Positions 2,304 to 51,408 of a stretch of 64,000 nucleotides of DNA are shown one piece after another. Both the position numbers and the translations under genes were made by a program. The DNA comes from Escherichia coli. GTDB lineage: Bacteria; Pseudomonadota; Gammaproteobacteria; Enterobacterales; Enterobacteriaceae. The notes below the pieces were generated by a model that saw only the letters and a list, made by a program, of their open reading frames with translations, did no database searches and was not told where the DNA came from. Where the stretch lies: assembly GCF_041886205.1 (NCBI RefSeq), contig NZ_CP169029.1; one strand, 5' to 3'. Every line of letters begins with the position of its first letter. Position 1 is the stretch's first letter.

Positions 2304-4727
2304 TTAAACCTTTTCGATCTGGACAAGATTGCTGTGCGACGGGTTTCCCTTTGCCAGCGGTGAAGGGCGGTGAGAGGTCAGAATATTGATACTGCCGCCG
2401 TGATCGACCCGGTCACCAAACATATCCGCTTTAAGCCACGCACCTTGCCCGATGGCGGTAACGCCAGGCAGAATACGCGGAGTCACTTTTGCGGCAATCA
2501 GCATTTCTCCATTATTGTTAAATACCCGCACGGTATCGCCATGACGGATACCGCGTGCCTGAGCATCAATGGGGTTGATCCACACCTCTTGTGGGCAGGC
2601 CTGCTGTAACACATCAATATTGCCGTAGCTGGAGTGGGTACGCGCTTTGTAATGGAAGCCCGTTAACTGCAGTGGATAGGTTTTCCGCAGGGGATCGTCC
2701 CAGCCATCAAAACCTGGGGTATACGCAGGAAGGGGATGAATAATTTCATCTTTTTTCAATTCCCAGGTATCTGCAATCTTCGCCAGTCGTTCAGAATAAA
2801 TTTCGATTTTCCCCGAAGGTGTTTTCAACGGGTTTGCCTGTGGATCTTCACGGAATGCGCGGAAAGCGACGTAGTGTTCTTCCGGGCATTTTTTCTTAAA
2901 GATCCCGGTCGTTTTCATCTCCTCGTAGTCGGGCATCTCAGGGTTACGTTCCTTCGTTTTCGCATGGAGATATTTGATCCATTCATGCTGACTGCGACCT
3001 TCAGTAAAGGTTTGATAAACGTCTGGTCCTAAGCGTTTGGCGACTTCACTCAGCATCCAGTAGATGGGTTTGCGTTCAAATTTTGCTGAGGTTGCGGGTT
3101 GGGCGAGGATCACATAGCCCATATTCCCTGCAGATTCATGAGAGATAAGGTCTTCTTGCTCTGTTGGCATCAGGTCGGGCAACAGGATATCGCAATACTT
3201 AGCCGAGGCCGTCATGAAGTGGTCAATGCCAACAATCATCTCGCACTTGCTGTCATCCTGAAGCACCTCATGGGTGTGATTGATGTCGCCATGTTGATTG
3301 ATCAATGTGTTACTGGCGTAGCACCATAAAAACTTGATGGGGACATCCAGTTTTTCTTTTCCACGAACACCATCACGGGTCGCGGTCATTTCCGTACCAT
3401 GGTCGATGGCATCTGTCCATGTAAAGACGGAAATCTGCGTTTTAACAGGATTCTCGAGCATCGGGAACCATTCTACCCCCAGATCCCAGCTACCTTCGCG
3501 TACGCCTGAGTTGCCGCCGTTTATGCCGACGTTGCCGGTGAGAACGGAAAGCATGGCAATAGCGCGGGATGTTTGCTCGCCGTTGGAATGTCGTTGTGGC
3601 CCCCAACCCTGACAAATATAAGCAGGTTTTGCTGAACCGATCTCTCGTGCCAACTGGATAATTTTTTCTGCCGGGATGCTGGTGATTTTTGCTGCCCATT
3701 CCGGCGTTTTAGCTATGCCGTCAGGCCCTTCGCCCAGAATATAGGCTTTATAATGCGCGTTACGTGGTGCGTTGGCGGGCAGCGTTTTTTCATCGTAACC
3801 AACACAATATTTGTCGAGAAATGGCTGATCGACCATGTTTTCAGTAATCAGTACCCAGGCAATCGCACAGGCCAGTGCGCCATCGGTGCCAGGGCGAATG
3901 GGCAGCCATTCATCTTCACGCCCGGCAGCAGTGTCGTTATAACGTGGATCGATGACGATCATGCGTGCGTTTGAACGTTCGCGGGCTTGCTCGACGTAGT
4001 AAGTGACACCACCGCCGCTCATCCGCGTTTCTGCCGGGTTATTTCCGAACATAACGACCAGTTTCGTATTGGCGATATCATCCGGGCTGTTGCCATCATT
4101 GGCACCGAACATATAACTCATTGCGGCACTGATCTGTGCGGTACTGTAGCTGCCATAGCGACTGAGAAAACCACCGCAAGAGTTCATCAGACGGTACGGG
4201 ACGTTTGAGTTGGTGATGTTTCCGCCATCTACACCTGTTCCGTACAGGACATGTACAGCCTCATTGCCGTAATCTTTTAGGATCCGCCGAAGATTATCAC
4301 TGATGGTATCCAGGGCTTCGTCCCAACTTATCCGTTCAAATTTACCTTCACCGCGCTTGCCGACGCGCTTCATGGGATATTTCAACCTATCAGGATGATT
4401 CATCCGTCGGCGGATAGAGCGCCCGCGTAAACACGCGCGAACCTGATGATTACCGTAGACGTCGTCACCTGTCGTATCAGACTCCACCCAGTACACGGTG
4501 TCATCTTTCACATGCAAACGTAACAGACAGCGGCTCCCGCAGTTAACGGTGCAGGAACTCCAGACCGCTTTCTCTTCTACCGGAACCTCTGCCGCCCGAA
4601 CCATTTGGGAAAATGGCAGAGTGAAAGCACTGCTTGCCAGCGCGAGACTGCCAAGTGCGGAGGTTTTCATCAGACTTCTACGGCTGATTTCAGCCTTCAT
4701 GAGCGCCTCTGTGGTATGGATTTTCAT
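2304..4727 (-). CDS. ynfF: Tat-exported molybdopterin oxidoreductase catalytic subunit (DmsA paralogue)
   Basis: 807 aa; twin-arginine signal SRRSLMK; N-terminal Cys cluster CTVNCGSRC; large MopB-type protein. Confidence 0.9.
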   Translation of the reverse strand: MKIHTTEALMKAEISRRSLMKTSALGSLALASSAFTLPFSQMVRAAEVPVEEKAVWSSCTVNCGSRCLLRLHVKDDTVYWVESDTTGDDVYGNHQVRACLRGRSIRRRMNHPDRLKYPMKRVGKRGEGKFERISWDEALDTISDNLRRILKDYGNEAVHVLYGTGVDGGNITNSNVPYRLMNSCGGFLSRYGSYSTAQISAAMSYMFGANDGNSPDDIANTKLVVMFGNNPAETRMSGGGVTYYVEQARERSNARMIVIDPRYNDTAAGREDEWLPIRPGTDGALACAIAWVLITENMVDQPFLDKYCVGYDEKTLPANAPRNAHYKAYILGEGPDGIAKTPEWAAKITSIPAEKIIQLAREIGSAKPAYICQGWGPQRHSNGEQTSRAIAMLSVLTGNVGINGGNSGVREGSWDLGVEWFPMLENPVKTQISVFTWTDAIDHGTEMTATRDGVRGKEKLDVPIKFLWCYASNTLINQHGDINHTHEVLQDDSKCEMIVGIDHFMTASAKYCDILLPDLMPTEQEDLISHESAGNMGYVILAQPATSAKFERKPIYWMLSEVAKRLGPDVYQTFTEGRSQHEWIKYLHAKTKERNPEMPDYEEMKTTGIFKKKCPEEHYVAFRAFREDPQANPLKTPSGKIEIYSERLAKIADTWELKKDEIIHPLPAYTPGFDGWDDPLRKTYPLQLTGFHYKARTHSSYGNIDVLQQACPQEVWINPIDAQARGIRHGDTVRVFNNNGEMLIAAKVTPRILPGVTAIGQGAWLKADMFGDRVDHGGSINILTSHRPSPLAKGNPSHSNLVQIEKV

Positions 4728-49373: not shown

Positions 49374-49808
49374 TTACGGCAGGACTTTCTTAAGCAAATG
49401 CTCAAGTGTTGCCACTTCGTCCGCCGTCAGGTTTTTTGTTAATTCTTGATGCAGGTCCTGGCCAACTAATTGATGGCATTGTTCGCATATTGCCGCGCCG
49501 CTGGTGGTAAGTTTTACCAGTACGCCGCGCTTATCATTCGGGTTCGGCAACCGTTCAACCCAGCCTTTACAGACCAGGCGATCCAGCATACGGGTCAGTG
49601 CTCCCAGGTCGACCGACAACACTTTTTTCAGTTCAACCGGAGTAATACACGCCGCGCAGCGGATAGAGCAGAGCACCTTAAACTGTGCCGCAGTAATATC
49701 CAGCGGAGACAGATACTCGTTAAGCAGACGATCTTTCTTCTGATTAACCATATGGATTAAGCGACCCAATGGAATAATTTCATTGAACAGATCGCTGGTA
49801 CTTTTCAC
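49374..49808 (-). CDS. marR: MarR repressor
   Basis: 144 aa, GTG start; winged-helix MarR sequence. Confidence 0.9.
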
Positions 49809-49810
49809 AT

Positions 49811-49906
49811 TAGTTGCCCTGGCAAGTAATTAGTTGCAGGGGATAATATTGCCCAGGCAAGTATAAGTCAAATGAATGAATGACCGATGCCACGTTTTGC
49901 TAAATC
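49811..49906 (-). promoter_or_regulatory. marO: two MarR operator palindromes, mar promoter and marbox
   Basis: TTGCCCTGGCAA at 49814-49825 and TTGCCCAGGCAA at 49849-49860; -35 TTGACT (rc) at 49866-49871; marbox GATTTAGCAAAACGTGGCATCGGTC (rc) at 49882-49906. Confidence 0.75.
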
Positions 49907-49985
49907 GGTTCAAGTTTTGGTCAATGCGATGCAAGGCAATGATACTAATCTGTATGGGAACGGAAAATATAATCTTTGCGTTATT

Positions 49986-50001
49986 ATAACTGATAAGTTA
50001 T
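49986..50001 (+). promoter_or_regulatory. perfect palindrome ATAACT-GATA-AGTTAT; candidate operator of the TA operon
   Basis: 6-bp inverted repeat with 4-bp spacer, 26 bp upstream of the toxin ATG, in an AT-rich promoter-like stretch. Confidence 0.4.
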
Positions 50002-50027
50002 ATTCAAGTATAAACAGGGGGGAAGCT

Positions 50028-50348
50028 ATGTATGAGCTACTATTTCACCCCGAAGCGGAAAGCGAAATTTATGACCTCGAACCTATTATGCAAGCAAAGG
50101 TACTTAAGGGACTAGAAAAGCTGGAAGCGAAAGGGCCGGAACTCCGCTATCCAGATACAGGCATTATCCAGGATGGTTTGTTTGAGTTGCGCGTAGGAAG
50201 AAAAGACATTTCAAGAACATTTTTTGCTTACGCTAAAGGTCGAAAGATCTATATTTTAAGAACGTTTATTAAGAAGACCCCTAAGACTCCGAAGGCCGAA
50301 ATTGCTCTGGCGACGTCAAGATGGGAGGAACTGAAAGATGGCTGTTAA
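50028..50348 (+). CDS. type II toxin, RelE/ParE superfamily (Gp49/HigB-like)
   Basis: 106 aa from MYELLFHPEAESEIYDL...; RBS GGGGGGAAG; overlaps the downstream XRE gene by 11 nt; the track start at 49887 lies in the marbox and is rejected. Confidence 0.65.
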   Translation: MYELLFHPEAESEIYDLEPIMQAKVLKGLEKLEAKGPELRYPDTGIIQDGLFELRVGRKDISRTFFAYAKGRKIYILRTFIKKTPKTPKAEIALATSRWEELKDGC

Positions 50349-50622
50349 AGGTATCAAGTTTTCTGAAGTCAAAGCAAAAGCACTTGCCAATCCTGACGTT
50401 AAAAAGGCTTACGATGAAGCCACGCAGGAAGAAGAACTCCGTGCAGTCCTCATTGAAATGAAGAAGAGAGCCGGATTAACCAGCACCGAGATTGCAGCTC
50501 GCATGGGAGTTAGCCAACCAGCTGTCAGCCGTCTTGAGAGGAATGTATCAAGTGCCAGCCTTACAACGTTACAACGTTATGCTGCAGCTTGTGGTATGCA
50601 CATTAAGTTGTCTCTTCAATAA
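50338..50622 (+). CDS. XRE-family HTH antitoxin (HigA-like)
   Basis: 94 aa; HTH LTSTEIAARMGVSQPAVSRLE; translationally coupled to the upstream toxin-like gene. Confidence 0.65.
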   Translation: MAVKGIKFSEVKAKALANPDVKKAYDEATQEEELRAVLIEMKKRAGLTSTEIAARMGVSQPAVSRLERNVSSASLTTLQRYAAACGMHIKLSLQ

Positions 50623-50653
50623 AATCGACACACTCGGATAGCTACCAGCCACA

Positions 50654-50690
50654 GGTCTGGAGTCGACTCTCAGCGAACCCAGACCTTTTC
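50654..50690 (+). terminator. hairpin terminator after the TA operon
   Basis: Stem GGTCTGG/CCAGACC with 18-nt loop followed by TTTT. Confidence 0.4.
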
Positions 50691-50742
50691 ATTTCGAACA
50701 ACACAATTGCCTTAATTGAGGCATACAGGATAACAACCACCA

Positions 50743-51408
50743 ATGTTAGATTTGTTTAAAGCAATTGGCCTGGGGCTGGTGGTGTTGCTGCCGTTAGCTA
50801 ACCCATTAACAACTGTCGCGCTATTTCTTGGTCTGGCAGGCAACATGAACAGTGCTGAACGTAATCGTCAGTCGTTGATGGCCTCGGTGTACGTATTTGC
50901 CATCATGATGGTGGCGTATTACGCCGGGCAACTGGTGATGGATACATTTGGCATTTCGATTCCCGGTCTGCGAATTGCAGGCGGCTTAATCGTCGCGTTT
51001 ATCGGTTTTCGGATGCTCTTTCCGCAACAGAAAGCGATTGATTCACCGGAGGCGAAAAGCAAGTCGGAAGAGCTGGAAGATGAACCCAGTGCCAATATTG
51101 CTTTTGTACCACTGGCAATGCCAAGTACCGCCGGTCCGGGAACCATTGCGATGATTATTAGCTCGGCGTCCACAGTGCGTCAGAGTTCAACCTTCGCTGA
51201 TTGGGTACTGATGGTTGCGCCGCCGCTGATCTTTTTCCTGGTGGCGGTTATTTTGTGGGGAAGTCTACGCAGCTCTGGCGCAATTATGCGGCTGGTGGGC
51301 AAGGGTGGCATTGAAGCGATCTCCCGCCTGATGGGGTTCCTGCTGGTATGTATGGGTGTGCAGTTTATTATTAACGGCATCCTGGAAATCATTAAAACGT
51401 ACCATTAA
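50743..51408 (+). CDS. marC: MarC-family inner-membrane protein
   Basis: 221 aa, six TM segments. Confidence 0.85.

Follow-up and report, generated by a model that had tools for sequence, protein, structure and literature searches.

The interval between marR and marC in a 64,000-nucleotide stretch of Escherichia coli DNA (contig NZ_CP169029.1; hereafter the window) contains a lineage-specific 787-bp segment, at positions 49938 to 50724, that codes for two small proteins on the plus strand. We read the segment as a horizontally acquired, self-contained type II toxin-antitoxin (TA) operon of the Gp49-type HigBA (Tad-Ata-like) family, with a probability of about 0.8. Along the window marB, marA, and marR (49374 to 49808) lie on the minus strand and are followed by the mar operator region, the two small plus-strand open reading frames (ORFs), and marC. 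A sequence-only reading of the window had proposed that the ORFs code for a Gp49/HigB-like toxin of the RelE/ParE superfamily and an overlapping XRE-family antitoxin. Profile searches with both proteins agree with that proposal, the toxin matching PF05973 and the antitoxin matching HTH_3 and HTH_37, all TA families.

The toxin, the antitoxin, and their promoter

The toxin gene (50028 to 50348, plus strand) codes for 106 amino acids. Pfam, identity to a RefSeq protein, and structure prediction all place the product with the Gp49-type HigB/Tad toxins of the RelE/ParE superfamily. It aligns with 87 of the 90 positions of the Pfam Gp49 model (PF05973, E 1.5e-22) and matches phrog_2523 (E 4.8e-26). 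It is identical to WP_000273128.1, named 'type II toxin-antitoxin system RelE/ParE family toxin' by RefSeq and present in ECONIH4 and BL21(DE3). The gp49 protein of phage N15 is 41.7% identical to it (E 2e-21), and relatives at 60-90% identity are common across the Enterobacterales, the Pasteurellaceae, and Shewanella. A few truncated E. coli variants are found in the protein database, such as those of 100 amino acids (P0004) and 104 amino acids (P0017). An extended ORF of 153 amino acids starting at 49887 was rejected as the toxin, since the homologues are all about 106 amino acids long and the RefSeq start is the ATG at 50028. That ATG is preceded by a Shine-Dalgarno-like sequence, GGGGGGAAG (50017 to 50025, plus strand). 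The G-run in this ribosome-binding region (50017 to 50022) has six Gs in the window and five in ECONIH4 and BL21(DE3). The one-G difference, a homopolymer polymorphism or else a sequencing error, alters the Shine-Dalgarno-to-ATG spacing by one base.

We compared an AlphaFold2 (AF2) model of the toxin, built with 43 homologues (mean pLDDT 86.3, pTM 0.78), to solved structures with Foldseek. The top matches are Streptococcus pneumoniae HigB (6AF3 and 6AF4) with template modeling (TM) scores of 0.80-0.81 and Mycobacterium tuberculosis HigB1 (7AWK, and 7NBU in which it is ribosome-bound with cspA mRNA) with 0.78-0.80, all at a probability of 1.00. RelE and YoeB rank next, and ParE structures reach a TM of 0.41-0.51. 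Gp49 belongs to the joint RelE/ParE superfamily and the RefSeq name stops at that level, which would leave room for a ParE-like gyrase poison in place of a HigB/RelE-like mRNA endonuclease. Given nearest structures that are HigB and HigB1 at a TM of about 0.8, followed by RelE and YoeB, and a partner that is a HigA-type XRE protein, we consider a gyrase poison highly improbable.

The predicted HigB-like fold is accompanied by conserved sequence features. All 30 positions that are invariant among the 43 homologues are retained in the window toxin, and K82 is invariant in the family as well. Like S. pneumoniae HigB and M. tuberculosis HigB1, the toxin has a KTPK segment, at a sequence identity of 18-24% to these proteins. 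In a weak profile alignment (E 0.17-0.21) K82 falls opposite the Ala of HigB1 K95A chains, and thus opposite the catalytic K95 of HigB1, suggesting K82 may be the catalytic residue. M. tuberculosis HigB1 is part of a three-component TAC (toxin-antitoxin-chaperone) system with a SecB-like chaperone, whereas the window locus has no chaperone. The HigBA of E. coli K-12 (YgjNM; 5IFG, 6KML) is of the same superfamily, with the toxin gene first and an HTH antitoxin, but falls in another Pfam family, matches the model poorly in structure (TM 0.57-0.59, E about 0.01-0.02), and is not an orthologue.

The antitoxin gene (50338 to 50622, plus strand) follows the toxin gene on the same strand, and the two overlap by 11 nt (50338 to 50348). 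Its 94-amino-acid product is an XRE/Cro-type helix-turn-helix (HTH) protein of the HigA type, as judged from Pfam (HTH_3, E 1.1e-11; HTH_37, E 1.4e-8) and from comparison with solved structures. The nearest solved structures are M. tuberculosis HigA3 (6LTY, E 4e-7) and HigA2 (7EWC) and S. pneumoniae HigA (6AF3_B). The antitoxin matches to NCBIfam models were all under the cut-off. The protein is identical to WP_000268704.1, a 'helix-turn-helix domain-containing protein' in RefSeq, and every carrier inspected has the pair labeled as a RelE/ParE-family toxin and an HTH protein.

Within the RelE/ParE superfamily, the HigB group includes a branch of toxins with a Gp49 domain, which in all studied cases are encoded upstream of an XRE-type antitoxin (PMC5906591). 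According to that paper, which cites Dziewit 2007, toxin-first Gp49 modules have been validated experimentally, some of them as Tad toxins. Known Gp49 HigBA/Tad-Ata modules include N15 gp49-gp48, tad-ata of Paracoccus plasmid pAMI2, Acinetobacter baumannii HigBA, and M. tuberculosis HigBA2/3. Like these, the window pair combines a PF05973 toxin, encoded first, with an XRE HTH antitoxin, in overlapping genes located in accessory DNA. It differs from them in being only about 42% identical to N15 gp49, in standing alone in an intergenic region of the core genome rather than on a plasmid or in a prophage, and in being known from sequence.

One promoter lies upstream of the pair and one hairpin downstream. 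The promoter was assigned by homology between modules and not by a consensus scan. Five modules (window, BL21, IncX1 plasmid, Pectobacterium, and Leclercia), about 77% identical overall when aligned, have in common a TTG(C/A)(G/A)T hexamer, 17 nt, and then TATATT or TATAAT. The inferred -35 element of the window is TTGCGT (49976 to 49981, plus strand) and the inferred -10 element is TATATT (49999 to 50004, plus strand). Their counterparts are TTGAAT 17 nt before TATAAT on the IncX1 plasmid, and the hexamer reads TTGAGT in Pectobacterium and Leclercia. An operator-like palindrome, TATAACT-GATA-AGTTATA (49985 to 50002), spans the promoter spacer and overlaps the -10 element. The sequence-only reading had picked out this palindrome in a slightly shorter form, ATAACT-GATA-AGTTAT. 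The motif TATAAC-N6-GTTATA occurs once in the window, with 0.11 occurrences expected by chance. Its half-sites, TTATTATAAC and GTTAT, are invariant in the five modules while the six central bases differ. An operator over the spacer and the -10 element is the usual layout for autorepression, suggesting that the antitoxin regulates its own operon. Conservation of the promoter and operator in unrelated genomic contexts argues that this regulation would be autonomous.

Downstream of the antitoxin gene, RNA folding and a search for inverted repeats point to a terminator-like hairpin (50653 to 50694, plus strand), in which AGGTCTGG and CCAGACCT flank an 18-nt loop and are followed by TTTTCATTT. The hairpin proper (50653 to 50686) has an 8-bp stem with a minimum free energy of -19.3 kcal/mol and a z-score of -2.6. 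The hairpin and its T-tract make it plausible that the operon has its own terminator, as had been claimed, but the consensus terminator scan did not call it because the loop is too long. It is not common to the plasmid, Pectobacterium, or Leclercia modules. A search of the 1.2-kb region against Rfam gave no match at E<=1, so the 106-bp tail of the segment that includes the hairpin is not a known RNA.

Boundaries, origin, and distribution of the segment

The marR start and the marC start are 934 bp apart in the window and in BL21(DE3) and 933 bp apart in ECONIH4, versus 211 bp in both K-12 MG1655 and EC11. The sequence-only reading had estimated about 935 bp against roughly 200 bp in K-12. In alignments to EC11 and K-12, the window is collinear with the short haplotype up to 49937 and again from about 50725. 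The 787 bp between these points (plus strand) stand where K-12 holds 63 unrelated bp (TAGCTAAAGAGTGACACTTTATCCTTGTTTACCCCTTATACTTTTCGCTGATAACCCAGATAC), so that DNA was replaced here and not simply inserted. The left junction falls between 49937 and 49938 and the right one between about 50724 and 50725 (+/-3 nt), and both are identical in BL21(DE3) and ECONIH4. The earlier view of the region as accessory DNA missing from K-12, with a K-12 gap of another length, was right. The extent given to it, 49907 to 50742, was too generous; 49907 to 49937 is native marO and 50725 to 50742 is the native marC leader.

The segment codes for nothing beyond the two TA genes and has no transposase or integrase. 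Its flanks have no direct or inverted repeats, no terminal inverted repeats, and no target-site duplication; at the target site 63 bp were lost rather than duplicated. Each carrier genome has one copy, with none elsewhere in E. coli. A transposable element, an insertion sequence, a miniature inverted-repeat transposable element, and an integron cassette were ruled out as there are no flanking repeats, target duplication, or transposase.

By blastn, modules on other replicons with 76-79% nucleotide identity cover 49964 to 50616 (plus strand), that is, the promoter and operator with the toxin and antitoxin genes. This conserved, portable part recurs in three settings: on IncX1 plasmids of about 46 kb from Salmonella and E. 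fergusonii, within a Pectobacterium versatile island that is P4-like and has an integrase, and on the Leclercia barmai chromosome, where the pair stands alone. The 26-bp head of the segment (49938 to 49963, plus strand) and its 106-bp tail with the hairpin are unmatched in the plasmid, Pectobacterium, and Leclercia modules, the homology beginning at 49964/49965. The head presumably derives from the context of the module in the donor. The IncX1 copy (WP_000273115.1 and WP_000974937.1) shares the promoter, the operator, the two genes, and the 11-nt overlap with the window at 76.7% nucleotide identity, and its antitoxin is 88% identical. It differs in having a stronger promoter (TTGAAT-17-TATAAT, 10/12 to consensus compared with 8/12) and neither the head nor the hairpin tail. 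On either side of the L. barmai module, at about 2894-2932 and about 3606-3645 of that locus, stands a direct repeat of some 34 bp, CTTATGCGCTCAGTTCGTTAAACC[G/C]TTCACGGAA. It points to a long duplication of the target or to entry into an element that was itself repeated; the E. coli copy has no such repeat.

A search for the donor gave no DNA relative closer than about 79%, the nearest being the modules at 76-79%. The phage nucleotide search gave no match, the phage relatives being distant ones at the protein level only (N15 and phiKO2). We conclude from these comparisons that a portable TA cassette appears to have entered by illegitimate recombination from an unsampled donor.

The presence of relatives in prophages N15 and phiKO2 and in a P4-like island also bears on whether the pair serves mainly as an anti-phage abortive-infection module, retained for the release of its toxin on infection. 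Many type II TA pairs, those of the RelE superfamily included, defend against phage, and PADLOC gave weak matches of the toxin to NsnC (partial, residues 47-95, E 4.8e-6) and of the antitoxin to HTH_VI (E 1.7e-8). Beyond the NsnC match PADLOC returned generic HTH matches only and no complete known defense system, and nothing in the locus is specific to defense. E. coli B, moreover, is a carrier and is classically permissive for the T phages. That phage defense is the main role of the pair is therefore unlikely, though such a role would be compatible with the pair being an addiction module.

We surveyed 5,426 complete E. coli genomes for the segment. It is found in 372 of them (6.9%), always as one chromosomal copy, and the carriers include E. 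coli B and BL21(DE3). A single match spans marR, the insert, and marC in the same 372 genomes, indicating that the insertion site is always identical. Among other species, 74 loci with both marR and marC were examined, including those of other Escherichia species, Salmonella, Citrobacter, Enterobacter, and Klebsiella. All 74 have a gap of 186-280 bp and neither TA gene. The 63 bp of K-12 are conserved in other Escherichia species, which together with the short outgroup loci indicates that the short state is ancestral. Absence from the 74 other Enterobacteriaceae loci likewise identifies the module as derived and horizontally acquired. That K-12 instead deleted the module was ruled out, since its 63 bp are unrelated to the insert and kept in other Escherichia and the outgroup loci are all short.

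Some records in these searches are probably mislabeled or rearranged. NZ_CP134663.1, a 4.9-Mb E. coli record filed among plasmids, has the insert at 98.2% identity and is evidently a mislabeled chromosome. Five 'plasmid' matches to the marR-marC query may be similar cases. The match in NZ_CM177858.1 (UPEC957C) is confined to the marR side of the query (1-237), suggesting that a deletion or rearrangement has taken away the marC side. SMXE01000224.1, a 'Caldithrix sp.' metagenome-assembled genome, encodes a MarC 100% identical to that of E. coli with a marR-marC gap of 211 bp and is almost certainly E. coli contamination.

The carriers fall into two allele groups. In 59 genomes the segment is at least 99% identical to that of the window, and in 313, including E. 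coli B, BL21(DE3), and derivatives, the identity is about 98.5%. The alleles differ at 14 positions over the intergenic region and the insert, and the junctions are alike in both. Only three of the differences are in coding sequence, all synonymous and none non-synonymous, compared with 8 changes in some 190 non-coding bases. The two proteins are thus identical between alleles that differ by about 1.5% in DNA, and the operator is unchanged as well.

This conservation speaks to the possibility that the segment is an inert acquired remnant that is merely carried along. Such a remnant would fit a promoter weaker than that of the plasmid homologue, the variable G-run before the toxin gene, the truncated variants of 100 and 104 amino acids, and the fact that no function is known for the pair. 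Against it, both frames are intact, the coding changes are all silent, the invariant residues of the family are all kept, and the genes are annotated in all 60 of the carriers sampled. An inert remnant is accordingly quite unlikely.

The haplotypes of the neighboring marO region differ among carriers. The marO haplotype of the window, with a 1-bp deletion described below, is also found in genomes that lack the insert (ATCC 8739 and 214-4), while the insert of BL21 sits on a marO haplotype different from that of the window. This pattern is best explained if the insert arose once and was then spread or lost as its flanks underwent homologous recombination.

The mar control region and marC

The native marO/marRAB control region (49809 to 49937, minus strand) lies outside the insert and is near-identical to those of K-12 and EC11. 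All its elements are on the minus strand. MarR site II (about 49814-49828) and MarR site I (49849 to 49863) were located as palindromes, and the marRAB -10 element TATTAT (49843 to 49848) and -35 element TTGACT (49866 to 49871) by a promoter scan. The marbox is at 49886 to 49906, where the best match (49887 to 49905) has 1 mismatch and is the only good one. All the marRAB promoter elements are to the left of the junction and untouched by the replacement. A Fis site, reported in the work of Martin and Rosner to lie immediately upstream of the marbox, would also be retained. The junction is about 30 bp beyond the marbox and outside the known marRAB control elements, so the TA pair is not inside the mar control region as had been suggested.

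The sequence-only reading had also described the marRAB control elements as intact. Every element is retained, but compared with K-12, EC11, and BL21 the window allele lacks 1 bp at about 49880-49881, between the marbox and the -35 element. The spacing from the -35 element to the marbox is thereby 14 nt and not 15. A 61-mer spanning the deletion is present in 156 of the 5,426 genomes, both with the TA pair (ECONIH4) and without it (ATCC 8739 and 214-4). As marbox spacing matters for activation by MarA, the deletion allele might change mar autoactivation. In the same spacer, at the equivalent of window position 49882, E. coli B and BL21(DE3) have A in place of G (T in place of C on the marRAB strand).

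Proximity to marRAB raised the possibility that the TA promoter is under MarA/MarR control, with toxin activity tied to antibiotic stress. The TA genes are divergent from marRAB and the TA -35 element is 70 bp from the marbox. In a strain that lacks the TA pair, chromatin immunoprecipitation also placed MarA peaks in the marC<>marR interval (PMC5684230). Within the insert itself, neither a marbox nor a MarR site exceeds the chance level. The closest marbox match there has 3 mismatches, as many as random 787-bp windows of this sequence most often give, and MarR palindromes are present only at the two known marO sites, with none over the TA promoter or elsewhere in the insert. MarA-regulated promoters usually have the marbox at class I or class II positions. 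The native marbox is about 105-115 bp upstream of the inferred TA start, its center at about 115 bp, and so lies beyond these positions. The promoter and operator are, in addition, kept in plasmid, island, and chromosomal contexts with no mar genes nearby. The proposed coupling of the toxin to the mar regulon thus found no support, and we regard it as very unlikely.

The replacement may matter more for marC, whose expression the sequence-only reading had suggested could be altered. The gene is intact (50743 to 51408, plus strand) and now starts 120 bp past the antitoxin stop codon. It retains its native leader with the ribosome-binding region (ACAGGATAACAACCACCA; 50725 to 50742, plus strand). 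The MarC protein, WP_000885033.1, is the same in carriers (ECONIH4 and BL21) and in the non-carrier EC11. A hexamer reading TATACT or TATAAT (2456-2461 in the SMXE01000224.1 locus, for example) precedes the marC ATG by 31-39 nt in 61 of the 76 Enterobacteriaceae loci compared, despite diverged surroundings. In Klebsiella and Raoultella the hexamer is about 52 nt upstream, and Kluyvera loci are without it. A loosely conserved GTTT(C/T)C motif stands ahead of the hexamer, with no recognizable -35 element. The region looks like an activator-dependent promoter.

In Escherichia the marC hexamer is TATACT, 39 nt upstream of the ATG, and falls within the 63 bp that were lost. No TATACT or TATAAT hexamer is present in the 75 nt before marC in the window. 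Between the hairpin and marC no promoter-like site scores above 7/12, and the sole site at 9/12 (50597 to 50625) is upstream of the hairpin. The consensus promoter scan called no marC promoter in either haplotype, and we found nothing relevant on the marC promoter in the literature. Loss of the conserved hexamer with no comparable promoter left suggests that marC would be poorly transcribed or depend on read-through, giving a concrete and plausible basis to the suggested change in expression. Transcription of marC is probably altered in carriers. A more specific version of this idea, in which marC has become a passenger of the TA operon and is transcribed only by read-through from a HigA-repressed promoter, rising under stress, or else is silenced, is possible but doubtful.

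Proposed action of the module and its significance

By analogy with its family, the toxin would be a ribosome-dependent mRNA endonuclease and the antitoxin would neutralize it by direct binding. An antitoxin dimer would repress the operon at the TATAAC-N6-GTTATA palindrome over the -10 element. Loss or proteolysis of the labile antitoxin would then free the toxin and arrest translation. The module most likely persists as a selfish addiction module. At marC, removal of the conserved -10 element in the replacement would leave the gene weakly transcribed or transcribed from the TA promoter by read-through of the hairpin.

Several points weigh against this account. No NCBIfam model matches the toxin, and its sequence similarity to solved HigB proteins is weak (E 0.05 with the single sequence and 1.8e-4 with a profile). 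The TA promoter, TTGCGT-17-TATATT, was not called by the consensus scan because it is only 8/12 to consensus in this allele. The hairpin loop is long enough, at 18 nt, that termination is only putative. Only three coding substitutions speak to purifying selection, which makes for thin evidence, and the -10 element of marC was assigned from a phylogenetic footprint and not from a mapped start site. In the literature we found no paper that describes or tests the toxicity, neutralization, or autoregulation of the pair.

The pair is already annotated by RefSeq and belongs to a known family. It is not new in kind but is an uncharacterized member, and one more chromosomal HigBA-type module is in itself of little consequence. 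The module is present in E. coli B, REL606, and BL21(DE3), which are much-used laboratory and production strains, where it has been overlooked rather than characterized. A multi-omics comparison of B and K-12 counted two TA loci in B (Yoon et al. 2012, PMC3446290). The Gp49/HTH pair between marR and marC in BL21(DE3) indicates that this count is incomplete. Lon typically degrades type II antitoxins. The reference list of PMC3446290 points to IS186 having inserted in the E. coli B lon promoter, so that activating the module may be difficult in B and BL21; this would not hold for other carriers.

If the proposed effect on marC is true, the carriers, B and BL21(DE3) among them and some 7% of E. 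coli in all, would be natural marC promoter knock-outs or would have marC under the TA promoter. Loss-of-function mutations in marC of K-12 improved tolerance to isobutanol (PMC3071312). A change in marC could in that case contribute to differences between strains, solvent tolerance for example. Findings on mar regulation that take the K-12 intergenic arrangement for granted do not carry over directly to carrier strains. Identical junctions on at least two marO haplotypes suggest that a cassette may spread within the species by recombination of its flanks after one illegitimate insertion. The locus may offer a clean natural case in which a TA cassette took the place of the core promoter of marC, a conserved neighbor, beside a paradigm regulator of antibiotic resistance.

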